From the IMG/VR virus record IMGVR_UViG_3300042381_000885: a stretch of DNA of 64,000 nucleotides. One strand, 5' to 3'. The notes beneath the pieces were generated by a model. That model did no database searches and was not told the DNA's origin. It saw only the letters and a program-made list of their open reading frames with translations. The position numbers and the translations under genes were made by a program. This document shows positions 17,699 to 63,609 of this stretch, in pieces. Each line of letters opens with the position of its first letter. Positions within the stretch are counted from its first letter, which is position 1. The DNA comes from a virus (taxonomy: Duplodnaviria > Heunggongvirae > Uroviricota > Caudoviricetes).

Positions 17699-17792
17699 AG
17701 TCAGGTTGGATACAAGGTCGGTTCGAGTCCGATGGAAGGTTATGGATGACGGGTAGCTCCCTGTAGAGAGGTTCGATTCCTCTCCTGACTAC
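17699..17792 (+). tRNA. tRNA-like element (pseudo-tRNA, no assignable anticodon)
   Basis: Acceptor AGTCAGG/CCTGACT+A and T-arm AGAGG-TTCGATT-CCTCT. A second T-loop-like hairpin TCGG-TTCGAGT-CCGA sits where the D-arm should be. Confidence 0.55.
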
Positions 17793-19294: not shown

Positions 19295-19381
19295 AGTCAG
19301 GTGGCGGAATTGGAGAGACGCAACTCTATTAAGGAGTGGAGATGAAATAAACTCATACAGGTTCGAATCCTGTCCTGACTA
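19295..19381 (+). tRNA. tRNA-Leu-type (class II), anticodon probably TAA but arm is non-canonical; no encoded CCA
   Basis: AGTCAGG-TG-GCGGAATTGGAGAGACGC, long variable arm, ACAGG-TTCGAAT-CCTGT, CCTGACT-A. Confidence 0.65.
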
Positions 19382-19656
19382 CGAATTAAAAAAAAAAATA
19401 ACAAAGGTATTGACTTTTGGTGATGTTATGAGATATTTATTATCTCACGGTTCGAGAGAACCAAAACACCCCAACAAAAGTTTCATAAAAAATTTGATAG
19501 TAACAAAACTATTACTTACCTTTGTGAAACATATATCCCACAGATGTATGTTCGAGAGAATTTATGTATGTGGGTTTTTTTTTTGAAAAAAGTTTGATTG
19601 GTGTTTGGATATTAAAAATAAAGTATTATCTTTGTACTCGAATTAAAACAAAAAAC

Positions 19657-20337: not shown

Positions 20338-20428
20338 GGTATTGTAGCTCAGTGGGGGATTTATCTTCCTTGGTAGAGCAGGAGTCTCGAAAGTCTCTGT
20401 GTCGCAGGTTCGAACCCCGCCGATACCA
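20338..20428 (+). tRNA. atypical tRNA, loop CT-CGA-AA, with a hairpin inserted in the D-loop
   Basis: GGTATTG/CGATACC+A acceptor, GCTC/GAGC D-stem, GCAGG-TTCGAAC-CCCGC T-arm, weak anticodon stem. Confidence 0.6.
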
Positions 20429-20434
20429 CAAATA

Positions 20435-20639: not shown

Positions 20640-21511
20640 AAGACGTTCTTAGAAATTTTAGATTATCCTTTACCCACTTCGGTGGAGTAAAAAACGATAA
20701 TGGGTGGTATATCATCCTTAAATAAATTGATGAAAATCAATATAAACCGAACTTAGTTGTGTTATTAAGTTTGGGGCTTCTGAAAGGGAGCTCGAGTATA
20801 CAAGTGAGATATCAGTGAGCCTGTAGTACCGAGGATAACTTCGTAGGGAAATGGATTACTGACCGGGAGATGTGGGTCTTTCGGTTGAGGGGGGAACCCC
20901 AAATTAAGAATAACTCATAGGAATTATGTGAGAAGTAAGGTCATCCAACCTTATAATTGCGAGTTCCAAAATTAAAGGAATCTTAACGCCGAAAGGCAAG
21001 ATTAAGTAACAGGTGGTGCTGACTTTGTCCTTATCAAACATCTACCAAGATGTTGATTTGAAGAATTCTTGAAATTTGGAGATAGGGATATCTCATCGAG
21101 AAGTTTAGTATTTTGTGTCTCAAAAGGATACGAAGCTTATGGTAGACTACTTCTTGAATACATCCACAACACAATTACTATTTTCAATATGGTGAAAAAC
21201 TAAAAGAAACATAGCAAAAATGTCTACCCGATGTCATTGACAAGTTGCCTACTTAGTTATGGGATGTCCATAGCACACAAAGACCGCAAGTCTGAATGTA
21301 TTCTTACCAAAAACCTCTACGGAGTCGAATCCGGAGTCAGGTCGCAAGCTTGAAGAGAGTTGAATAATGAGAGAGTAGATGATATCGTAAGAAGTGATTG
21401 GTCTAACCAATCGGCAATGAGGATTACATCCCAAAAGGGTGTGGAAAAGAAGTCAAACAATAAAACTTCCAAAGATTCTCAATAAGACGAGTATTCTCAT
21501 CGTATTAAGCC
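20640..21511 (+). ncRNA. large structured ncRNA, GOLLD-like candidate
   Basis: About 870 nt without a credible ORF, raised GC, many tetraloop hairpins, own promoter and terminator, next to tRNA-like genes. Confidence 0.55.
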
Positions 21512-41124: not shown

Positions 41125-41430
41125 TTAGCGTACCATTTTCCATTCAATGTCCCAATCAGAACCGTATTCTCCAACTCCTAAACTAAACATAAGATTAATA
41201 TCATTTATAATATATTTAGATGTCCAAGTTGGGCTATGTGTCATCTTACCATCAATGAAGTCAATGTTTATTGTATTTCTATTTATTATCTTCTCACCTC
41301 TACTATTTGGTTCACCAGCTAATTGGACTAACTTTGTTGTAAAAAAAACATTTTTGACCATAGGATATCTCTCAAGAATATATTTTTCAAGTAAGTTATT
41401 AATTCTGCTTTCAGTTATAATGTATTTCAT
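41125..41430 (-). CDS. MKYIITE-tag protein, paralog of 59618
   Basis: Shares VKNVFFT.....NRNTINIDF...MF.LGVG..GS.W with 59618. Confidence 0.7.
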   Translation of the reverse strand: MKYIITESRINNLLEKYILERYPMVKNVFFTTKLVQLAGEPNSRGEKIINRNTINIDFIDGKMTHSPTWTSKYIINDINLMFSLGVGEYGSDWDIEWKMVR

Positions 41431-41517: not shown

Positions 41518-41915
41518 TCACATTACGGTGATATTTAAAACTTCATCTATTTTCCTTTTATCTTTCAATCGCGTCCCTATCGTCGTTGTAACACCACAAT
41601 TCAATATTGACTCCACTAAGTGGTCTTTCAAGCCGTAATCGGAAATAGTTGTTGTTACCCCACAATTTAATACTGACACCACCCATTCTTTTATAAGTGG
41701 TTCATATTCACTTCTCACCATACAAAATAATTGGAAATAATCGTAAAAAAAATCCCATCTCCAACATAATGTACCATTTTTATGAAATTCCAAATACCAA
41801 CATTTTTTTTCTCTGTCAATAAACCAAAGGGAATCTGCATATAAAATCAATTCCACATGAGATAGGCATCGGTTAATTTATTAAAAATTAGTTGTTTTAG
41901 TTTATCTGTAATCAT
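41518..41915 (-). pseudogene. frameshifted MITDK-family gene carrying a short CRISPR-like array (locus C)
   Basis: ATG at 41915 aligns with 51301, but GATAGGCATC here versus GATAGGTCATC there is a 1-nt deletion near 41866. Repeats at 41582-41617 and 41648-41683. Confidence 0.7.
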
Positions 41916-42361: not shown

Positions 42362-42595
42362 CTATTTCTTTTTAAATTTTTCAAACCATTCTTTTACATC
42401 AAAGCTATTACCTAATTTTAAAGATTGTAATTTCAACGTATGTTTATTGAAAGCGTTTAATAAAACAAAAACTTCTCCCTCACTATAACTATTTTGTTGT
42501 TGCCATTTAGCACCAAATTCTACTGCTAACTTGTATGAATGAGGTAATGGAGAATCTAAATATCTTTCCTTTGCTTCTTCAAGTGTTTCTTTCAT
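42362..42595 (-). CDS. KETLEEA family protein
   Basis: MKETLEEAKE...GAKWQQQNSYSE...KEWFEKFKKK. Confidence 0.65.
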   Translation of the reverse strand: MKETLEEAKERYLDSPLPHSYKLAVEFGAKWQQQNSYSEGEVFVLLNAFNKHTLKLQSLKLGNSFDVKEWFEKFKKK

Positions 42596-42827
42596 CTTAT
42601 TTCTTTTTAAATTGTTAATATTCCAAATAATAAAAAAACAAAAAAAACAATTAATCCACCATATACAACAATAGATAACCCCCATTCTTTTATAAATTTT
42701 TCCATCTTATTTCTTTTTTATTTTTTCAAACCAAAAATCCACGCCATAGTTTATCAATAGTCCAGCAATTGTTAAAAACCCAATCATAAAAAAGAATATT
42801 ACTATAACTTCTAATATTTTTCCCATC

Positions 42828-44977: not shown

Positions 44978-45190
44978 TTTTTTTATTTTTAACGTTGTTT
45001 TAAAAATTCTTCTATTGCCTCTTCGGTATTGTCAAAAACATACCATACTTCTTGCCCGCAATCTCTCGCCCAGTCAATAAATTCCTCTAATAATTCTTTT
45101 GTTTCCATTTTTTTTATTTTAGTTTACTAATTACTCTTGTTTTATATACGAAGTCGTTTTTTGCCCTCGTTAATTATAATTGCCGTACTT

Positions 45191-45836: not shown

Positions 45837-46107
45837 CTTGTATCTCTTTGTATTTCTGAATAATTAATAAACAACTATCTCCAACCTTCCATCTTCCTTC
45901 GTATTCAAATGGAATTTCAATCTCTTTCGTAACCTTGTCAGTTTGCACCCAAAGTTTAGGAAGTTCTGCAATTCTACCGCTATATCCTCTTTTAGTAGCT
46001 GAAACTTTACCATCAATTATTTCTTGACCTATATGTGTATACTTTTGTTCGGTACAAGAAGTAAGTAGTAGTAGTAATGATAATATTAATATGTGTACGT
46101 TTTTCAT
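45796..46107 (-). CDS. putative lipoprotein
   Basis: MKNVHILILSLLLLLTSC lipobox. Confidence 0.6.
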   Translation of the reverse strand: MKNVHILILSLLLLLTSCTEQKYTHIGQEIIDGKVSATKRGYSGRIAELPKLWVQTDKVTKEIEIPFEYEGRWKVGDSCLLIIQKYKEIQDEKHTRNTNTKTK

Positions 46108-46649
46108 AATGATTTTTTTAAAGGTTTAGGTTCTTCTTTTGGAATGTAGTATTGACGACTTTCAAATGTTTCTTTATAATGTAATTCATCAAAATCAAAA
46201 TCTTCTTGTGGAGTGATGATTTTGTAAAAATTAGTTCCTTGAAGTAATTTACGTTTTTCAACCTCAACCTCCTCACAACTTGGATTCTTAACAAACCATT
46301 CTAAAAACTCATCAGGTATAGCTTGTACACCATCAGAAATTAGAGCAGTATCTGTTGTTAGGATGATTTTTTTACACCAACCACCATTAGGGTAAGTGAT
46401 AAGAGGTTCTTTTCTAACAATTTCTTCTGTAACTTTTATGGGTTTAAAAACATTTCTTCTACCCATTTCCCCAACCGCATTGATTACATAACAATTACAA
46501 TCTGTAATTTCTTCATCAGAAGTGATGTAGATGTTTTGTTTTTCCTTTTGATGTATTACGTCTTTAATATATAAACATAATTCTCCTGTTTCTTGTCCAA
46601 TAAATAACCTACTTGGTTTATCTGTTCCTATAATGTGTATGTTTTTCAT
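46104..46649 (-). CDS. MKNIH family protein
   Basis: Family blocks. Confidence 0.75.
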   Translation of the reverse strand: MKNIHIIGTDKPSRLFIGQETGELCLYIKDVIHQKEKQNIYITSDEEITDCNCYVINAVGEMGRRNVFKPIKVTEEIVRKEPLITYPNGGWCKKIILTTDTALISDGVQAIPDEFLEWFVKNPSCEEVEVEKRKLLQGTNFYKIITPQEDFDFDELHYKETFESRQYYIPKEEPKPLKKSL

Positions 46650-48202
46650 AATGATTTTTTTAAAGGTTTAGGTTCTTCTTTTGGAATGATGATTTTGTAT
46701 TTGTAAGTTAAAATCATATCATTCAAAGATTTGGTTGAAATAAAACTTGGTGGGTCTTGTAAAGCATTAAATCTTATTTTTGGGTTTTTTGAAGAAATAA
46801 GCTCGTCTTCTATTTTTCTTACTTCAACCTCCTCACAGCTTGGATTCTTAACAAACCATTCTAAAAACTCATCATCAATATCTTGTACACCATCTTTGAT
46901 TAAGTCTTGGTCTGTTGTTAGTGTGATTTTGAAAACCCCAGAATTTTCAATATTAGCTAATTCAATATCTCCTTTATTTTGAATTTTAACACAATGAATT
47001 ATAGCACCTTGTGTATAAATCACCCAATCCCCTTCTTTAATTTCTACATCAGAAGTGATGTAGATGTTTTGATTCTGCCAAGTTTTATTATTTAACATCA
47101 AATCAGGGAGCCAAAGCAAAGTACCCTCTTTAAAATTATTTGGAGCATTTTCTTCACTTCCATTTTCATCTATAAAAATATTAGATGTTCTTTTTAATAA
47201 CCTACTTGGTTTATCTGTTCCTATAATGTGTATGTTTTTCATAATGATTTTTTTTAAAGGTTTAGGTTTTTCTTTTGGAATGATGATTTTATATACATAG
47301 GAATCAGTTTTTGAATGAAAACAATCATCAATATAATTACCAAATTCATCGATATGTTGTGATTTTACTTCAACCTCCTCACAACTTGGATTCTTAACAA
47401 ACCATTCTAAAAACTCATTTGGAATAGGTTGTACACCATCTTTGATTAGGTCTACATCTGTTGTTAAGATGATTTTTTTACAGTTTTCATTCCAAACTTT
47501 GATATGATTGTTTATATTTTTAGCAATTTTATTTGTTCTTAAATCTATAATCCAACTACCATCTGCTTCTTTAATTTCTTCATCATTAGTGATTGAGATG
47601 TTTTGGTTTTTAAAATCATCGTTTCTACTTTGAATTGAAGTTTGTAACATTCCAAATACAAAGTTTCCATTATCTCCTGAATATAACCTACTTATTTTAT
47701 CTGTTGGTATTACGTGTATGTTTTTCATAACTATATGTTTCTTTTTAGGTTCACTTAGAATGATGATTTTGTAATTAATTCTATGTGGAACAACTATTGG
47801 TTTATTGCCTTGATGTTGTACTAAAGGTTTATCTTGTATAATTATCAATTTTTCATTGACCTCAACCTCCTCACAACTTGGATTATTAACAAACCATTCT
47901 AAGAACTCATCATCAATAGCTTGTACACCGATTAAGTCTTGGTCCGTGGTTAGGATGATTTTCTTTAACCAACTACTTAAATTAACATTCTTTTGTGAAA
48001 TTATATCTTCACATTTATCAATGGTATTTTTTAAGGTGTTTAAATACCAATCATCTTCTTTAATTTCTTCATCAGAAGTGATGTAGATGTGTTGAAACTT
48101 AACATCATTACCTTTAATATTTGGTAATAAAAAATAAAATCCTTCTTTTGTTAGATATAACCTACTTGGTTTATCTGTTCCTATAATGTGTATGTTTTTC
48201 AT
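46646..48202 (-). CDS. three MKNIH units fused in frame
   Basis: Internal MKNIHVIPT and MKNIHIIGT restarts. Reverse TATCTTTG promoter at 48222-48229. Confidence 0.75.
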   Translation of the reverse strand: MKNIHIIGTDKPSRLYLTKEGFYFLLPNIKGNDVKFQHIYITSDEEIKEDDWYLNTLKNTIDKCEDIISQKNVNLSSWLKKIILTTDQDLIGVQAIDDEFLEWFVNNPSCEEVEVNEKLIIIQDKPLVQHQGNKPIVVPHRINYKIIILSEPKKKHIVMKNIHVIPTDKISRLYSGDNGNFVFGMLQTSIQSRNDDFKNQNISITNDEEIKEADGSWIIDLRTNKIAKNINNHIKVWNENCKKIILTTDVDLIKDGVQPIPNEFLEWFVKNPSCEEVEVKSQHIDEFGNYIDDCFHSKTDSYVYKIIIPKEKPKPLKKIIMKNIHIIGTDKPSRLLKRTSNIFIDENGSEENAPNNFKEGTLLWLPDLMLNNKTWQNQNIYITSDVEIKEGDWVIYTQGAIIHCVKIQNKGDIELANIENSGVFKITLTTDQDLIKDGVQDIDDEFLEWFVKNPSCEEVEVRKIEDELISSKNPKIRFNALQDPPSFISTKSLNDMILTYKYKIIIPKEEPKPLKKSL

Positions 48203-48277: not shown

Positions 48278-48595
48278 ATGAACTTACAAGAGAATATACG
48301 TAGAATAAAATCAATGATGGGAGTTGTTATTGTTGAATCTGAGATTGAGATGCCGGATTATGCTGTATTTGAAATAATGATACCGATGGCTTATTTACCA
48401 CTTAAATATTATTTTCAGGCAACACCAATACATCATTTGGAATCGGATAGGATATATGTAAATAAAGGTGCTGGTGGAAAATCAATCTCAACTAAAAACA
48501 TTAAAGTATTAAAAACCTTTAAATACGATGAAAAAGATGAGATGGAATCTTATCTTAATAATTTAAGGGATAATCAATATAGAAAAGAAAATTAA
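48278..48595 (+). CDS. MNLQENI-tag protein
   Basis: N-terminal tag; TATTTAT at 48267. Confidence 0.7.
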   Translation: MNLQENIRRIKSMMGVVIVESEIEMPDYAVFEIMIPMAYLPLKYYFQATPIHHLESDRIYVNKGAGGKSISTKNIKVLKTFKYDEKDEMESYLNNLRDNQYRKEN

Positions 48596-48596
48596 T

Positions 48597-49097
48597 ATGA
48601 ACTTACAAGAAAACATACATAGAATACAGGAAGTGATGGGGATTATCTCTGAGGTTAAATCGTCATATACTGTAAAACAAATAGAGAAGGGTTTAAACAA
48701 GTCTGCAAAGGACAATGATATAACAATAAACACAAGTGTTGATAATGTTATAAATAACATAGATAAATTTGAATTTCAGATTGGTTCGGTAGAGGCGTTT
48801 TTAGATGATGAAAATAGTTTTGCAGCGGACTCACTAGTTGAAAAACTAATATCTTATGTCAAAGATAAGAATTTAAATATTGATATATCCAAATTGATTG
48901 AGTATAACAATTATAGAAGAGAGTACGACAAAAATGATGATAGAGTGTTTGAACTTTTATATAACACACATCCTGATGATGACTATACAGAGGAGATAGA
49001 AAGATTATATAAAAGGAATGATGAGTTATATCCTTATTTTGATTTACTAAAACAGGAAACCTTAAAGGTTAAACAAGAAATACTTAATTTAGAATGA
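48597..49097 (+). CDS. MNLQENI-tag protein
   Basis: N-terminal tag. Confidence 0.7.
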   Translation: MNLQENIHRIQEVMGIISEVKSSYTVKQIEKGLNKSAKDNDITINTSVDNVINNIDKFEFQIGSVEAFLDDENSFAADSLVEKLISYVKDKNLNIDISKLIEYNNYRREYDKNDDRVFELLYNTHPDDDYTEEIERLYKRNDELYPYFDLLKQETLKVKQEILNLE

Positions 49098-49867
49098 ACC
49101 TACAAGAAAATATACAAAGAATAAGAGAGATGATGATTGCCGAAGAAATGGTTCAATCGGACGCTTGGAAATCAATTAAAAAAACATTGGACATCCTCAA
49201 AGATAAGAAAAAAGTTTTATTCTTAAGTTGTTCCAATAGATATAATTGGGATGATAAAAACATAGACATTCCAAAATCAAAAATGATTGCAATGTATCTT
49301 AACGATGAATTAAAAGATAATTCAGTGTTGATTGATGTCTCTGAACTTAATATTGTTCCTTGTGAAGGAAATGTATCAAGGAAAGATGGAAATAGTTGTG
49401 GAGTGTTAAAGGCAATGCTCAAAGATAAGAAAAAAAATCCATCAGGAGACCATAGATGTTGGGCGAGTATCAATAATCCAAAGGATGAACTATGGAAGAT
49501 AAGTAAAGAATTATTTGAATCTGATGCGGTTATATTCTTTAGTTCGGTAAGGTGGGGACAAACAAATATGTTTTATCAAAACTTAATTGAGAGATTAACT
49601 TGGATTGAGAATAGACATTATACATTAGGGGAATCAAATCTTGTTAAAGATATTGAGAGCGGATTTATCTGTGTTGGACAGAATTGGAATGGTGAGAATG
49701 TTACAGAAACACAAATGAAAGTTCATGAGTTCTATGGGTTCAAACCAAATGATGATTTATATTGGAATTGGCAATACACCAAAGATATAAATGATGAGAC
49801 TCAAAAATCATATAAGGATTCACACAAGAAGTTTATCAAAGATACAAAATTACCGGAATTTAAATAA
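49094..49867 (+). CDS. flavodoxin-fold NAD(P)H-dependent FMN reductase / Fe-S flavoprotein-like, with MNLQENI tag
   Basis: LFLSCS, IDVSELNIVPCEG...CG...RCW, ESDAVIFFSSVRWG...LIERL. Confidence 0.7.
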   Translation: MNLQENIQRIREMMIAEEMVQSDAWKSIKKTLDILKDKKKVLFLSCSNRYNWDDKNIDIPKSKMIAMYLNDELKDNSVLIDVSELNIVPCEGNVSRKDGNSCGVLKAMLKDKKKNPSGDHRCWASINNPKDELWKISKELFESDAVIFFSSVRWGQTNMFYQNLIERLTWIENRHYTLGESNLVKDIESGFICVGQNWNGENVTETQMKVHEFYGFKPNDDLYWNWQYTKDINDETQKSYKDSHKKFIKDTKLPEFK

Positions 49868-49921: not shown

Positions 49922-50281
49922 TTAATTATTAAAATAATTATTATTTAGAAATGAATAATCCTCAACCTGAATGTCAAAGTGTTTATTAAACCAATTCATC
50001 ACCAATGTATTTGGTTTATCATCGAGTCCTTCACCCACGGTAGATTCACCAAACATATCTTCAAGTTTATTTTGAAATGAGACCAAGATTAATAAAACAT
50101 TAGTTACACCATATTTGTGAGTATTAGCTCTAACAACAAAAGTGGGTCCTTTATCATTAGAGTGTTCATAAACTTCAAAAGGATATAATTCATCACTTGA
50201 TTCCAAAACCCTCCAATCGATACTATCCAAGTATTTGGAAACCACATCTTTTAATCTGTTTTCTGTTATAATATACTTCAT
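49922..50281 (-). CDS. MKYIITE-tag small-domain protein
   Basis: Ends NWFNKHFDIQV. Confidence 0.7.
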   Translation of the reverse strand: MKYIITENRLKDVVSKYLDSIDWRVLESSDELYPFEVYEHSNDKGPTFVVRANTHKYGVTNVLLILVSFQNKLEDMFGESTVGEGLDDKPNTLVMNWFNKHFDIQVEDYSFLNNNYFNN

Positions 50282-50587
50282 TTACTTAACCTTTTTTACC
50301 TCGACACCGAATTTATATTCAAACCATCCTTTAACCAAGTGATTAATTTCTTTATCGGTTTTATTGGATATGTCCATAAGACTCTTTCTAAATGTATTAT
50401 CAAACCATAATCTACCATCTTCTCCGTCATACTCCATTTCAATTTCAGCGCTTTCACCATCGTAATCAATCAATTCTTCAATGATAATGAATTGGTCACA
50501 ACCATATGTGTTTTTTGTAGATAACCAATTTTCCAAATAATTGACCATAAATTCATTTAATCTATTTTCTGTGATAATATACTTCAT
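50282..50587 (-). CDS. MKYIITE-tag small-domain protein
   Basis: Ends GWFEYKFGVEV. Confidence 0.7.
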   Translation of the reverse strand: MKYIITENRLNEFMVNYLENWLSTKNTYGCDQFIIIEELIDYDGESAEIEMEYDGEDGRLWFDNTFRKSLMDISNKTDKEINHLVKGWFEYKFGVEVKKVK

Positions 50588-50629: not shown

Positions 50630-51301
50630 TTAACTACTCGGACTTAATGAGGAATTATTTAAGACTGACCCTACTGTATGAGCATACGCTCCATCTCCTG
50701 ATTCTATTGTTATTACCTCACCATTTAGGACTGACTCCACCAAGCGGGTGTTCGGCATGGAACTAAAATAAGTTGTTACCCCACCATTTAGGACTGACTC
50801 CACCGCTTGATTTTGCATCCAAACTTCTCCTACGGTTGTTGTTACCCCACCATTTAGGACTGACTCCACCCATGACAATAGTTCATGACACATAAGGGAT
50901 GTTGTTGTTACCCCACCATTTAGGACTGACTCCACCCGTTTGATACAACCATTTTCGTTCCTCCATGTTGTTGTTACCCCACCATTTAGGACTGACTCCA
51001 CCCCAACCCTTTTTTGCAAATTCAATAACGGTGTTGTTGTTACCCCACCATTTAGGACTGACTCCACCCATTCGGTGATAAGTGGTTCATATTCATCTCT
51101 TTCCATACAAAATAATTGGAAAAAATTGGAAAAAAATCCCCATCTCCAATATAATCTGCCGGACTTTTGAAATTCCAAATACCAATATTTGTTTTCTCTA
51201 TCTATGAACCAAAAGGAATCTTCATATGAAATCAATTCCACATGAGATAGGTCATCGGTTAATTTATTAAAAATAAATTGTTTTAGTTTATCTGTAATCA
51301 T
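50630..51301 (-). CDS. MITDK-family protein with translated repeat-spacer tail (locus A)
   Basis: About 78-aa conserved domain, then VESVLNGGVTTT plus about 10 variable aa, six times. Confidence 0.8.
   Translation of the reverse strand: MITDKLKQFIFNKLTDDLSHVELISYEDSFWFIDRENKYWYLEFQKSGRLYWRWGFFSNFFQLFCMERDEYEPLITEWVESVLNGGVTTTPLLNLQKRVGVESVLNGGVTTTWRNENGCIKRVESVLNGGVTTTSLMCHELLSWVESVLNGGVTTTVGEVWMQNQAVESVLNGGVTTYFSSMPNTRLVESVLNGEVITIESGDGAYAHTVGSVLNNSSLSPSS
50706..51068. CRISPR. CRISPR-like array inside an ORF, no cas genes: 36-nt repeat GTTGTTGTTACCCCACCATTTAGGACTGACTCCACC
   Basis: Repeats at 50706, 50769, 50835, 50901, 50967 and 51033; spacers 27, 30, 30, 30, 30 nt and mutually unrelated. 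Geometry is certain; CRISPR function is unproven. Confidence 0.65.
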
Positions 51302-51759
51302 ATTGTTGTTCCATTATTTAATATTTCCTCCACACATTTGAGACCACGTATATGATTACTAATGGTTGCCGTGACACCTTTCTTTAATATATAACTCACC
51401 AAAAATCCGTCTTTATTTGCTCTATACGATGTTTTCACTCCGCCATTTAGGACTTCTTCGATACCTACATGATTACCAATATTGATTTCAGTTGTTATTA
51501 ACTCATGGTTTAATACTTTCTCTACCCATTCTAATATGATTGGCTCGAATTGGTTTCTCTCCATCGTGAATAATTCAAAAAATTCAATAAAGAATTGCCA
51601 TCTCCAATATAGTTCGCCTGAAGATTTAAATTCCAAATACCAATATTTTTTCTCTCGGTTAATAAACCAAAAGGAATCACGGTATGATATTATCTCAACA
51701 TGGGATAAATCTTCACTCAATTTATCAAAAATTGTTCTTTTAAATTTATCTGTAATCAT
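51298..51759 (-). CDS. MITDK-family protein with degenerate repeat tail (locus E)
   Basis: VEKVLNHELITT / IEEVLNGGVKTS / VSYILKKGVTAT / VEEILNNG at 21-22 aa period. Confidence 0.75.
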   Translation of the reverse strand: MITDKFKRTIFDKLSEDLSHVEIISYRDSFWFINREKKYWYLEFKSSGELYWRWQFFIEFFELFTMERNQFEPIILEWVEKVLNHELITTEINIGNHVGIEEVLNGGVKTSYRANKDGFLVSYILKKGVTATISNHIRGLKCVEEILNNGTTI

Positions 51760-51824: not shown

Positions 51825-52349
51825 TTATAATCCATTTAATACTGACTCCACCTTTATTGCAACGGATAACTTAGATGGTACTGTTGTTGTCACCCCACAA
51901 TTTAATGCTGACTCTACCAATAGTTTTTGGTGGAATTTCATCAACAACGTTGTTGTCACCCCACAATTTAATGCTGACTCTACCCATTTCAGTTTTTTGA
52001 TGGTGCCTATTTGAGTTGTTGTGACCCCGCAATTTAATGCTGACTCTACCGTCCATCCGGCGATTGAATCCTTGTTTACTGTTGTTGTAACCCCGCAATT
52101 TAATGCTGACTCTACCCATTCTTTTATAAGTGGTTCATATTCATTTCGTTCCATTGTGAATGGAGAGAAAAAATTAGTAAAGAATTGCCATCTCCAATAT
52201 AATTTACCTGATTTTTCTAATTCCAAATACCAATACTTCTTTTCTCGGTTAATAAACCAAAGGGAGTCATTGTAGAAAATCAATTCCACATGAGATAGGT
52301 CATCGGTTAATTTATCAAAAATTGTTCTTTTAAATTTATCTGTAATCAT
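51825..52349 (-). CDS. MITDK-family protein with translated repeat-spacer tail (locus B)
   Basis: VESALNCGVTTT plus 10 variable aa, four times. Confidence 0.8.
   Translation of the reverse strand: MITDKFKRTIFDKLTDDLSHVELIFYNDSLWFINREKKYWYLELEKSGKLYWRWQFFTNFFSPFTMERNEYEPLIKEWVESALNCGVTTTVNKDSIAGWTVESALNCGVTTTQIGTIKKLKWVESALNCGVTTTLLMKFHQKLLVESALNCGVTTTVPSKLSVAIKVESVLNGL
51832..52116. CRISPR. CRISPR-like array inside an ORF: 36-nt repeat GTTGTTGTNACCCCRCAATTTAATGCTGACTCTACC
   Basis: Repeats at 51883, 51949, 52015 and 52081 plus a partial copy ending at 51852; all spacers 30 nt. Confidence 0.65.
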
Positions 52350-54390: not shown

Positions 54391-54939
54391 TCATATTTCA
54401 CCGTTAGCGGGGTAGTTTAATTTGTAATGGTTTTCTACCAAAGGTAAATCAACGATAAAACAACCGAAGGTTGTTGTTGACTTTAATTTGTGAAGTTCCT
54501 CCGGTGTAACATTTCCATAACGGTCATGTCTTGTTGTTGTTACGTTTAATCTGTGATGTTCCTCCACCTTGTCCCAGTGAACAAAGCAATTCGGCACGAT
54601 TGTTGTTACGTTTAATCTGTGATGTTCCTCCACCAAGTCAATCAATTCTCCTCTTTCTTCGACCGTTGTTGTTACCTTAAATCTGTGATGCCCCTCCACC
54701 CATATTTTTGTTAGGTCTTGTACTTCCTGATAATTTAATCCAAAAAAGGTTTCTAATAATGACCAAATTTTAGAATAAGAGATATAAACAACCCCATTTA
54801 TTTTACTGTAATAATTAAGAACTTTCCCGTCTTTCATAAAGAATATATGCTCTTTCCAATCATCCGTTTCATAATCAACAATCCCGGAATATTCTTTATT
54901 TAGGTAGTTAATGATTCTATGCTTTAGTTTATCTGTCAT
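54391..54939 (-). CDS. small-domain protein with translated repeat-spacer tail (locus D)
   Basis: VEEHHRLNVTTT-type repeats plus 9-10 variable aa. Confidence 0.8.
   Translation of the reverse strand: MTDKLKHRIINYLNKEYSGIVDYETDDWKEHIFFMKDGKVLNYYSKINGVVYISYSKIWSLLETFFGLNYQEVQDLTKIWVEGHHRFKVTTTVEERGELIDLVEEHHRLNVTTIVPNCFVHWDKVEEHHRLNVTTTRHDRYGNVTPEELHKLKSTTTFGCFIVDLPLVENHYKLNYPANGEI
54415..54700. CRISPR. CRISPR-like array inside an ORF: 36-nt repeat GTTGTTGTTACGTTTAATCTGTGATGTTCCTCCACC
   Basis: Repeats at 54533, 54599 and 54665, degenerate copy at 54470, partial copy ending at 54439. Confidence 0.6.
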
Positions 54940-55254: not shown

Positions 55255-55516
55255 AGTATTATATTTGTCGGCAAAGATATAAAAAAGAAATGAATAAACA
55301 AAAAAAGGGGTAGGGGATTGACGCCCCGGACCATATGATAGATTATAATAAGTGTTCTTCATAATATTACCAAAATGTGTAATATATGATAAAAGACATA
55401 TATTCCTCATTATATGATAAAAACCATATAAGTCCTGAGACTTATAAACCCACAATATAAGTCCGGAACCTTATTATCGACGAGGAGGTTTTCTATTGAC
55501 CATATATTTATCAATA

Positions 55517-56872
55517 ATGATAAGATTAGCAGAACAATCCAATGAGCCATCACTAAGAGTAATTTCCAAATTATTCAAGTTGTTAGATGTGGAGAAGAAA
55601 AAGAATAGAACAAGAGCATCTTTATTAGAAGCCATCAAGAATTTTGCGCCATATATGGGAATACCTAAAGGATTCGAGCAATATATTTTGGAGTTGTATG
55701 TATTAAACTTTAGAAAAGATGGGGACTACTCAAACTTAACGAAGGAAAACTTTGTTGACCCAAGAAAACAAAGTGGGAAGGTTATATCAAATCCAAAGGC
55801 GAAACTATACACAATAGCTCAATTACCATTCAGAGGTTCAAATTTAGAGGGATATTGGTCCGAAGACCCAAAAGGAACTCCATACTATAAAGTTGTATCA
55901 TACGGGTGGTACCCTATTTACATATTCAAAGATGATAAATGGTATGAGGTAACAAAAAATTATTCTTCATCCACAAGTAGACAAATAAGTAATGCCAATC
56001 CTGTGGGATGGGGTGATGATACATTCGATAGTGTATATACATTAACTCCTGATGAGATGAAACTATTGGAGCGGGGATATAGTCATGATGATATAATGAA
56101 GAATAAGGTAAAGAAATTAAAAACAATCGAACCTGATTTAACAAAGAGAAAGAAGACAGCCAAGACATACAATTATTGGAATCAAGACCCGGAACAAATG
56201 GTTCCAAACACAAACATAAAGTTCAAAGTAAGGAATATAGAGGTGGGTGATGATAACGCCATTGTTAATATAGATGTGTATGATGTATTTAAAAGAGAAA
56301 ACAACACACAGGTATATACACCACAGAACTACTTAAAGGGGGAAATCCCTAATCTTAATCCAACCAAGGTGGAAGACGCAATCAAAATCAAAATGAGGGG
56401 TGAATTAAAAGATTATATCGGTAAGAGATTTAGATGGACACCACAAGACCCAAAAGGGGCGAAGATAGAGTTTAAATTCAATCATTTAAAACAACCGGGT
56501 TTACAAGAGAATATACATAGAATCCAATCGATGATGGGGGTTATTAACGAAAGTAAATTAAATAACATTGCCAAGAAATGGTTAAACGATAAGTATGGTG
56601 ATTTAATACCATTTGAAACTAAAAAACATCGCAATTTTATTTATTATAGAAAAGGTGATGAAGTAGTTTTTGACTACAATAAAAAAAATGGGGAGGTTTA
56701 TGTTAGTTATGATGAGATTTGGTCATATTTACAATCAATGTTTGGTATGGAATGGAAACAAATTCGGGACCTAACAAAGGAATGGATAGAGGAACATTAT
56801 AATTTAAGGGTAACGGAAACAAACTATGGATTTTATACCGTTTTAATTAGGTGGAGGAACATTACAAATTAA
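55517..56872 (+). CDS. multi-module protein ending in an LQENIHRI tag plus a locus-D-type domain
   Basis: C-terminal ~100 aa align with 54939. Repeat-like unit at 56785-56820. Confidence 0.7.
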   Translation: MIRLAEQSNEPSLRVISKLFKLLDVEKKKNRTRASLLEAIKNFAPYMGIPKGFEQYILELYVLNFRKDGDYSNLTKENFVDPRKQSGKVISNPKAKLYTIAQLPFRGSNLEGYWSEDPKGTPYYKVVSYGWYPIYIFKDDKWYEVTKNYSSSTSRQISNANPVGWGDDTFDSVYTLTPDEMKLLERGYSHDDIMKNKVKKLKTIEPDLTKRKKTAKTYNYWNQDPEQMVPNTNIKFKVRNIEVGDDNAIVNIDVYDVFKRENNTQVYTPQNYLKGEIPNLNPTKVEDAIKIKMRGELKDYIGKRFRWTPQDPKGAKIEFKFNHLKQPGLQENIHRIQSMMGVINESKLNNIAKKWLNDKYGDLIPFETKKHRNFIYYRKGDEVVFDYNKKNGEVYVSYDEIWSYLQSMFGMEWKQIRDLTKEWIEEHYNLRVTETNYGFYTVLIRWRNITN

Positions 56873-56878
56873 GATAAT

Positions 56879-57442
56879 ATGAACTTACAAGAGAACATAC
56901 ATAGGATACACGAGATAATGGGCGGGGTTATTAACGAACAGTCCGAATTAAAAAAAGATGCGCTAAAATCCATGTTAAAACAATCAGGGATGGCGGTTAC
57001 ATCCAAACTAATGGGCGGGATTGATAATTTAATAAAGGTTCTTTATGATGGTGATATTATGGGGTTTAGTGAGGATACTCACACACCACTTGTTTATATG
57101 TCGACAGACAAAATGGCGTTATATATACATGACGCGTTGGTTGAAAAACTTGGACTAAACAATAATTCACGACCACTACATCGTGATGAAAAAGAATTAG
57201 GGGATTTTAGATTCGGGTCAAAAGACAATATGATTTACAAGTTTACAGCAAGATTATATCCGACAAACCTTCATGACCAAACATATTATAAAGTTGTGGG
57301 GTTAAGTGGTGATTCAGGATTCGGTTATGGATTTATTAGTAAAAAAAACATATTGGGTTTAAGAAACAGACAACAAATCTTCAAGCAGATTATAGACAAA
57401 TATAATTTGGAACCATACATGAAATTAAAAACATTCTATTAA
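56879..57442 (+). CDS. MNLQENI-tag protein
   Basis: N-terminal tag; terminator at 57449-57475. Confidence 0.7.
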   Translation: MNLQENIHRIHEIMGGVINEQSELKKDALKSMLKQSGMAVTSKLMGGIDNLIKVLYDGDIMGFSEDTHTPLVYMSTDKMALYIHDALVEKLGLNNNSRPLHRDEKELGDFRFGSKDNMIYKFTARLYPTNLHDQTYYKVVGLSGDSGFGYGFISKKNILGLRNRQQIFKQIIDKYNLEPYMKLKTFY

Positions 57443-62988: not shown

Positions 62989-63609
62989 ATGGAGTATTGT
63001 GAATTACCGAAAGATTCTTTATTAACTAAATTACCTAATTTCAATTTTATTAGGGATGATGAGAAAAAGGACAGGATGAATGTTGTAATTGCCGGTGGAG
63101 CCGTCCGGGATAGTTTATTTGGGGATGAGTATAGTGATATAGACATCTTTGGATTAACTAAAGAGGATTTGGATTTATTTGTTAAGTTGAATCTATCTAA
63201 GGGTAATGGTTATAAATTGGTTTATTTCAATGAGAACTTGAGGACTTATAGAAAGGGTAAGATTAAGGTTCAGATTATATATAGGGAATATGATAAATTA
63301 ACGGATATTATTGATTCATTTGATTTTACGGTATGTCAGTTTATGTTTGATGGGGAGAAGGTTATATGTAACCCCTCCGGTTTATTGGATGTTTACCATA
63401 AGAGGATTATTATAAATCATCTTGAACCATTATTTGTCTTTGATTCTTTGAGAAGAGTTCAGAAATATATACAGAAAGGATATACCATCTGTAATGGTGG
63501 GATAAAGGACATATTGGATAAGTGTCGGGAATTGACTCAGGAACAATATGATGAGAATGTGGAATTCTATCCTAACACTAATGAATATCGAATAATTCGA
63601 TTTGATTAA
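62989..63609 (+). CDS. second nucleotidyltransferase (CCA/poly(A) polymerase head-like)
   Basis: IAGGAVRD, DIDIF, IDSFDFTVCQ. Promoter TTTG-N20-TATCTTTG at 62943-62974. Confidence 0.75.
   Translation: MEYCELPKDSLLTKLPNFNFIRDDEKKDRMNVVIAGGAVRDSLFGDEYSDIDIFGLTKEDLDLFVKLNLSKGNGYKLVYFNENLRTYRKGKIKVQIIYREYDKLTDIIDSFDFTVCQFMFDGEKVICNPSGLLDVYHKRIIINHLEPLFVFDSLRRVQKYIQKGYTICNGGIKDILDKCRELTQEQYDENVEFYPNTNEYRIIRFD

Follow-up and report, generated by a model that had tools for sequence, protein, structure and literature searches.

Locus A is a protein-coding gene on the minus strand of a 64,000-nucleotide (nt) stretch of Caudoviricetes DNA (IMG/VR record IMGVR_UViG_3300042381_000885), the whole of which we refer to as the window. 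Its 223-residue product begins with a 78-residue head domain and continues as a tail of 22-residue units, each made of 12 constant residues (VESVLNGGVTTT) followed by 10 variable ones. A sequence-only reading of the stretch had described the tail as a repeat-spacer array with the geometry of CRISPR, held in one reading frame, and our analysis bears this description out. Judged from sequence, locus A is shown to carry a type VI-B-like repeat-spacer array of host DNA that turns over unit by unit with a fixed polarity, is fused in frame to a protein domain and is kept open to translation. The features of the gene, in the order in which it is read, are as follows.

50630-51301, minus: the locus A gene, an open reading frame (ORF) of 223 amino acids (aa), head domain plus translated array; 57 homologs; identical gene called on 23 contigs
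51069-51301, minus: head domain, residues 1-78, in the position of a CRISPR leader
51033-51068, 50967-51002, 50901-50936 and 50835-50870, minus: four identical 36-nt repeats, each coding for VESVLNGGVTTT, with spacers S1-S3 between them
51003-51032, minus: spacer S1 (PLLNLQKRVG), 30 nt, the newest unit
50937-50966, minus: spacer S2 (WRNENGCIKR), 30 nt
50871-50900, minus: spacer S3 (SLMCHELLSW), 30 nt
50805-50834, minus: spacer S4 (VGEVWMQNQA), 30 nt
50769-50804, minus: decayed repeat, three changes at its 3' end
50742-50768, minus: spacer S5, 27 nt
50706-50741, minus: decayed repeat, three changes
50676-50705, minus: spacer S6, 30 nt
50640-50675, minus: degenerate partial terminal repeat
50630-50632, minus: stop codon, after the old end of the array (50640-50804)

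This layout agrees to the base with the earlier description of six repeats, four identical and then decaying, with a degenerate copy ending at 50675, and the six translated spacers are likewise as first given, the last two being FSSMPNTRL and ESGDGAYAHT. Minus-strand reading gives a repeat of 36 nt that opens with GGTGGAG and closes with ACAACAAC, and one junction of repeat and spacer reads ...GVTTTPLLNLQK... in the tail of the protein. The start codon of the gene overlaps the stop codon of an upstream paralog (ATGA at 51298-51301). The six spacers hold 74 guanine or cytosine bases (G+C) in 177 nt, a count we recover as 41.8% against 31.5% for the window, and six random 30-mers of the window reach this content in 0.5% of draws (resampling, P ~0.005). 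Tryptophan, cysteine and methionine make up 5.1, 3.4 and 5.1% of the 59 spacer residues, compared with 1.8, 1.3 and 2.4% in the window's long ORFs. The enrichment seen by the sequence-only reading is thus real in its numbers, but it reflects no special motif, as near-random sequence of 42% G+C without stops yields most of it, together with a constraint of codon phase: the DNA-level repeat starts one base ahead of the codon boundary and variable codon 10 ends in the repeat's first G, so that NNG codons are forced at that position and explain part of the tryptophan and methionine excess. An alternative frame of locus A (50883-51071, minus) is also open across three units, as a 62-aa ORF.

The repeat and its reading frame

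To place locus A within its family, 109 related loci were fetched and arrays were traced on DNA, independently of ORFs, in 142 non-redundant genes. Identity within arrays is 0.70-1.0 over exactly 36 columns, from one base before a codon boundary to the second base of the last threonine codon, after which it drops to 0.22-0.33, the level of chance, for exactly 30 columns. A repeat that starts at the third codon position was, by this token, not shaped by protein selection. The repeat is also akin to CRISPR repeats. The family consensus matches the VI-B repeat of Flavobacterium columnare (from table 4 of PMC5395568, re-read in genomes as L127 and L128) at 25 of 36 positions, and the locus A repeat matches it at 20 of 36, both in register; against a non-coding array of the same phage, the consensus matches at 24 of 36, and in each of these comparisons 0 of 10,000 shuffles scored as high. 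The II-C repeat reaches only 12-13 of 36, which is chance level. The ends of a VI-B-type repeat (5' GTTG..., ...GGTA...ACAAC 3') are present, but with G for T at the second base. The phage's non-coding array follows a TnpB/Cas12f-like gene (PF07282, 400 aa) at L118:13576-15299, ~2.5-5 kb past the window end and ~12 kb from locus A, and combines a 36-nt VI-B-like repeat with 29/30-nt spacers (unit spacings 66, 65, 66 and 65). Across 62 genes, synonymous positions at the two ends of the coding repeat vary little (0.35 and 0.21 bits, where other synonymous positions have 0.8-1.9), which suggests that these ends are recognised at the level of nucleic acid. Between genes, the entropy of the repeat is 0.71 bits at the first codon position, 0.52 at the second and highest, 1.04, at the third. 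Sought as an array among 185,579 prokaryote genomes, the coding-type repeat gave one lone hit.

The reading frame is kept across the family. Exactly 66 nt is the length of 412 of 453 units and a multiple of three that of 442, and units of other length mostly differ by 3 nt in either direction (63 or 69 nt in 21 units). Among 371 unique 30-nt spacers a single one (0.3%) has an in-frame stop, while the same spacers hold stops in 129 and 190 cases in the other forward frames, in 119-139 on the reverse strand and in 177±9 when shuffled. Arrays of at least three repeats are open to the last repeat in 95 of 100 cases, and three of the five exceptions have a 29-nt spacer and then run on out of frame. 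As a control we used real VI-B arrays of F. columnare and F. covae, where spacers of 29, 30 and 31 nt number 6, 13 and 3 (n=22), and where 9-11 of the 22 spacers carry a stop in any given frame (41-50%); a length of 30 nt is found in 91% of spacers in translated arrays and in 59% of those in the control. This comparison of sequences shows frame and openness to be kept far beyond what real non-coding VI-B arrays display. CRISPR arrays are expected to be non-coding loci, and here a single ORF spans the array. In one subfamily (L059, L072, L096 and L056) the terminal repeat contains a single extra A, which moves the frame onto an in-repeat TAA, so that the array supplies its own stop codon.

Substitutions, too, differ by frame. 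In shared spacers the ratio of nonsynonymous to synonymous polymorphism (pN/pS), estimated from 33 changes, is 0.37 in the gene's frame and 1.0-1.4 in the control frames; old spacers in diverged lineages show only synonymous differences (e.g. KTYSDGFNPK), and repeat peptides are still conserved where the DNA repeat has decayed. The sequence-only reading had held that spacers conserved as fixed protein across distant homologs would speak against it. Old spacers are indeed fixed in diverged homologs, as KTYSDGFNPK is, but this is a matter of decayed arrays; young arrays swap whole units, and the reading is not refuted by it.

Spacer sources and array turnover

Locus A is accompanied in the window by further genes with the same head domain, whose spacers were traced along with its own.

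51298-51759, minus: paralog E, 153 aa, same head domain, strongly decayed array
51825-52349, minus: paralog B, 174 aa, four repeats and four 30-nt spacers
41518-41856, minus: paralog C, 112 aa, truncated head
54391-54939, minus: paralog D, 182 aa, divergent repeat VEEHHRLNVTTT
55496-56872, plus: a 458-aa protein (locus F) whose C-terminus is the head domain and one repeat-like unit

A BLAST-type search of ~1,200 Flavobacteriales genomes, scored as matching columns out of 30, gave the following sources.

A-S1, 51003-51032: 29/30, Flavobacterium short-chain dehydrogenase (SDR), sense, different frame
A-S2, 50937-50966: 29/30, Flavobacterium FGAR amidotransferase (purL-type), sense, different frame
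A-S4, 50805-50834: 28/30, Flavobacterium GH13 cyclomaltodextrinase, sense, same frame
B-S2, 51985-52014: 27/30, gyrase/topoisomerase IV subunit A type (gyrA/parC), sense, same frame
B-S4, 51853-51882: 27/30, Flavobacteriaceae unnamed 276-aa ORF, antisense
C-S1, 41618-41647: 28/30 in five Flavobacteriales genomes, SAM hydroxide adenosyltransferase (SAM-HAT), sense, same frame
D spacer, 54569-54598: 28/30, Flavobacteriales unnamed 487-aa ORF, sense, different frame

Seven window spacers thus match at 27-29 of 30 columns, each match co-extensive with its spacer, six in sense and one in antisense orientation, and by our own estimate ~2e-4 matches of 28/30 would be expected in the search space. One host GH13 protein has the identical ten residues VGEVWMQNQA. 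Matches to host genes that begin and end with the spacer argue that the spacers are templated and come from ordinary chromosomal genes. The origin that the sequence-only reading had suggested, foreign or non-templated DNA, therefore holds in its first half (A-S1, A-S2 and A-S4 are Flavobacterium genes) and falls in its second. Templated host origin also explains the G+C shift, by which the spacers differ from the genome both at locus A and across the family (42.5% against ~30%); a composition like that of the genome would have told against the sequence-only reading. Four spacers, which make up 8% of the query, took 48 of the 55 matches listed for the genus search, and we regard Flavobacterium as the likely host genus. 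Hosts of other family members may differ; in L049, with ~29 spacers, one spacer matched Flavobacterium.

Other searches were negative. S3 had no source in the Flavobacteriales genomes, and exact 24-mer scans with A-S1, A-S2, B-S1 and two high-GC family spacers found nothing in IMG/VR and/or GTDB species genomes; exact-word scans fail where BLAST succeeds because the matches carry 1-3 mismatches. INPHARED phages gave chance-level array matches only, and within the related loci and the 64-kb window spacers match homologous array spacers only, with no self-match in the window. We rejected one test of templated against random origin, based on counts of open frames, whose excess over mononucleotide shuffles (z 5.75) vanished under a first-order Markov null; it was the host matches that decided the matter. 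Several side observations concern spacers and host-like sequence. The alternative frame of locus A reads S1 as TVIEFAKKGW and S2 as MEERKWLYQT, which are the native host-protein readings of the source genes. Some family spacers are near-perfect palindromes (the first spacer at L105:1545 and the last of L061), for example a 30-mer starting TGCCGTAATTGG. Outside the arrays, stretches of 30-70 nt at 45074-45130 and 42588-42746 have many 80-94% matches in Flavobacteriales genomes (order-level search), and could be either conserved gene segments of host type or simply AT-rich sequence.

Turnover of the arrays is polarised. All 71 pairs of arrays with common spacers are colinear, and units unique to one member number 221 at the domain-proximal end, 71 at the distal end and 64 internally. 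Repeat identity falls family-wide from 34.4/36 to 25.8/36 at the last copy, and spacer G+C from 43.9% in the proximal-most to 40.5% in the distal-most spacers, as expected if spacers drift toward phage composition. Over 6,606 nt, an allele from another sample (L124) has the sequence of the window without a mismatch, except that one 66-nt proximal unit (S1 and a repeat) is missing. Among proteins, P0002 is the window protein without its first unit, and P0003 has the head and the two oldest units in common with it along with five different proximal units.

The locus A protein has 57 close homologs, none with an assigned name, and no match in Pfam or PHROGs, and a profile of the head recovers 683 representative clusters among 1.84 billion proteins, almost always at the N-terminus. 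The median array has four repeats, and a head with one repeat only is a natural form, found in 24 genes. AlphaFold2 (AF2) predicts the head as a helix, four strands and two helices with good confidence (predicted local distance difference test, pLDDT, 90.4; predicted template modelling score, pTM, 0.80), the last helix continuing into the first repeat. This fold had no match in PDB (Foldseek E > 0.8; VIA best Z 5.0) and nothing usable in Atlas. In another subfamily, tandem head-domain genes (L121, at G005:173500-177500, and L122 and L123, in G003) end in a repeat-like string coding for VEHTLQMEVRYN, mostly as a single unit, whose reverse complement also reads GTTG...CAAC. A supposed second array type in the relatives G003 and G005 was dismissed on this ground, being the reverse strand of further head-domain genes that end in repeat-like codons.

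The source of the window is a large uncultivated lake phage of ~315 kb, and identical contigs recur in lake-water metagenomes. A glycosyltransferase and a metallophosphoesterase adjoin locus A and are specific to this phage. Elsewhere in the window we note a full-length GOLLD RNA (RF02032, 284.7 bits) at 21096-21503 (plus), with transfer RNA-like genes beside it at 17699-17792, 19295-19382 and 20338-20429, one of them called with a four-base anticodon. Among the genes at 49922-50587 (minus), 41125-41430 (minus), 48278-49867 (plus), 56879-57442 (plus) and 46104-48202 (minus), several small proteins that otherwise look unrelated have common N-terminal signatures (MKYIITENRL..., MNLQENIxRI...), and MKNIHIIGTDKPSRL occurs in three copies within one 518-aa ORF and once more in the next gene. 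A 206-aa protein at 62989-63609 (plus) has the precomputed Pfam annotation PF26128 (Gad2).

Competing explanations

The explanation we favor, and consider reasonably probable, is that host DNA enters phage coding sequence through CRISPR-like spacer capture, and that selection keeps the resulting array translatable. During infection, a spacer integrase would duplicate the first repeat, which codes for the end of the head's last helix, and insert 30 nt of host DNA, each event adding 22 codons, 12 constant and 10 new. The likeliest integrase would be host Cas1-Cas2 acting in trans, a mode shown for the VI-B array of F. columnare, which is itself Cas1-less. Frame-shifting or stop-bearing insertions would be purged by selection, and units would later be lost through recombination between repeats. 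The selected product would most likely be a protein, comprised of the head and an extensible tail of VE[ES]VLNxGVTTT motifs with sequence-tolerant linkers of ten residues between them. A functional tail is favored by the near-absence of stops, which a functionless tail should tolerate given that head-plus-one-repeat proteins exist naturally. We advance more tentatively the further possibility that this phage family uses spacer capture to write new protein sequence, with each event appending a 22-residue module and the variable tails being the selected functional product. Within such tails the spacer peptides, which have no positional hydrophobic pattern and a composition much like that of stop-free sequence at 42% G+C, behave as tolerated linkers and not as designed elements.

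Several observations weigh against the capture of host DNA into a selected protein tail. The lack of a positional pattern in the spacer peptides makes a structural role doubtful, and AF2 draws the tail as stacked beta hairpins with low confidence (pLDDT 53-64). The pN/pS estimate has only its 33 changes to rest on, and selection against stops could reflect operon polarity and not a need for the tail. The single-unit difference between L124 and the window could be a loss instead of a gain. A complete 321-kb relative and two partial ones yielded no Cas1 (PF01867); among the five best-matching Flavobacterium genomes only one has Cas1, and none has a VI-B-like array. Nor is there a shared protospacer adjacent motif, the upstream TTTA-N5 reported for F. 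columnare VI-B fitting one of seven flanks, which were taken from the source's relatives. No RNA run was found to contain locus A. A marine metatranscriptome contig resembles 51259-51366 at 90-95% and is possibly DNA carry-over from a relative. Missing cover of S1 and S2 in a 2020 lake run was discarded as evidence; Logan contigs of lake runs break inside the array.

The alternative that survives best, though we think it unlikely, is a working guide-RNA array, which would supply CRISPR RNA to the phage's TnpB/Cas12f-like nuclease or to a host Cas13b and would be open only so that ribosomes cover it, against nonsense polarity or Rho termination over the packed downstream genes. Such an array would account for the kinship of its repeats with VI-B repeats and with those of the phage's own nuclease-linked array 12 kb off, for the synonymous sites conserved at the repeat ends and for the near-random spacer peptides; the genes of the cluster do overlap or abut on one strand, as at 51298-51301, and compact arrays lacking Cas1 are on record from huge phages, some of them with host genes as targets (PMC7162821). 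Against it, we found 0 consensus pairs among 45 diverse repeats, with single repeats folding no better than shuffles; in VI-B repeats a 5' GTTG pairs with CAAC, and the corresponding bases here are GGTG. Six of the seven located spacers are in sense orientation, and RNA transcribed along with the gene would be unable to pair with the host's mRNA at these; TnpB was not found in five partial relatives that bear such arrays. The conservation of repeat peptides despite DNA decay and the pN/pS of 0.37 also count against this alternative.

A second alternative, which we judge improbable, takes the arrays for a decoy or by-product of integration. Here the 3' end of the gene would mimic a leader-repeat junction, and ectopic inserts made by the host integrase would be near-neutral scars, or a sink that spares host arrays, tolerated as long as the gene stays intact. 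Spacers drawn from ordinary host genes regardless of strand or frame, numerous paralogous target genes in each genome, near-random peptides and short arrays (the median of four repeats) with frequent internal losses are all what such scars would look like. Scars, though, need not avoid stops: a stop in the first spacer would leave the natural head-plus-one-repeat form, known from 24 genes, and yet only 1 of 371 spacers has one. The length changes of 3 nt in 21 units, and not of 1 nt as in real arrays, and the synonymous-only change in old spacers also speak for upkeep of the frame over mere tolerance.

There is very little chance, we think, that locus A encodes an ordinary tandem-repeat protein, in which a 22-residue repeat is homogenised by unequal crossing-over, ten residues are under diversifying selection and the likeness to CRISPR is coincidental. 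The whole array is coding, its repeat varies with 3-nt periodicity between genes, and the hairpin stack that AF2 draws resembles beta-solenoids such as CsgA (Z 11.1 but root-mean-square deviation 8.8 Å, at low pLDDT). Against this stand repeat boundaries that are sharp and one base off codon register, a repeat that is the in-register kin of VI-B repeats, spacers that are mutually unrelated within an array (chance identity) and 12 points richer in G+C, and alleles set apart by exactly one unit and free of substitutions over 6.6 kb. Copying of the spacers from bacterial genes contradicts it outright, and the location of the matches in conserved housekeeping genes excludes transfer of whole genes from phage to host. 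Scarcely credible, too, is a multi-core peptide precursor of the cyanobactin type, with the head as leader, the 12-mers as recognition sequences and ten-residue cassettes to be cut out, for although the domain is leader-sized and conserved flanks enclose hypervariable cassettes of constant size, the 109 related loci keep no protease, cyclase or further tailoring gene nearby (none of nine neighbouring window proteins recurs in more than 6), the cassettes are arbitrary host DNA in any frame and the head is predicted to be a well-folded domain.

CRISPR arrays are usually regarded as stores of guide RNA that code for no protein, and we found no description of a translated one in the full-text literature searched; here a VI-B-type array is kept open, with little room for chance. 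If an integrase does extend a phage protein by captured units, this would be a new source of protein variation, a new interaction of phages with the adaptation machinery of Bacteroidota, and a natural record of host DNA that names Flavobacterium as host of an uncultivated phage. If the tails prove to be the selected product, spacer capture would join diversity-generating retroelements and cassette recombination as a third natural means of targeted hypervariation in microbial proteins. Even the modest reading of ectopic filling and mere tolerance would show spacer integration acting on phage genomes during infection. These ideas are directly testable, as a working assay for adaptation in trans exists in F. 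columnare.

Comparison with known systems

Diversity-generating retroelements and cyanobactin PatE-type precursors also produce short hypervariable protein segments between flanks that are identical at the nucleotide level. Locus A differs from both in having no reverse transcriptase, template repeat or tailoring enzymes, and in the insertion of whole foreign 30-mers where retroelements rely on mutagenic copying. Closer in mechanism is ectopic spacer integration in E. coli at leader-repeat-like sites outside CRISPR loci, where the integrase starts a new unit and duplicates the local ‘repeat’. Such events are sporadic, whereas the target at locus A belongs to a conserved family with hundreds of members, and its multi-unit arrays are under selection for translation.

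Huge phages offer a second point of comparison. Their compact arrays have a median of 6 repeats, lack Cas1, Cas2 and Cas4, and can have repeats that resemble those of the host and spacers that match host genes (Al-Shayeb et al. 2020, PMC7162821). The locus A family shares with them the short arrays (median 6 there and 4 here), in phages of the same huge kind, and no Cas1 was found in the three related phage records searched; the phage itself also bears a conventional array of this sort beside its TnpB/Cas12f-like gene. Huge-phage arrays have been described as non-coding guide-RNA loci, and translation, upkeep of the frame and fusion to a domain are features that appear neither in that paper nor in the others we found.

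The closest known system is the VI-B array of F. columnare. Having no cas1 or cas2 of its own, it acquires spacers of phage and host origin through the II-C Cas1-Cas2 working in trans, although the repeats and leaders of the two types are unlike (PMC8092290). Like the arrays of F. columnare and F. covae, locus A has a 36-nt repeat of related sequence, with the same GTTG/GGTG...ACAAC ends, and spacers of ~30 nt; in both, new units stand at the leader end in the direction of transcription, spacers come from the host chromosome and no adaptation genes are adjacent. The locus A family differs in that neither Cas13b nor a conserved RNA fold was found for it, and in that its array lies on a phage. 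Its ‘leader’ is the coding sequence of a protein domain whose end is encoded by the first repeat, and its array is one ORF, with spacer length held at 30 nt and stops nearly absent.

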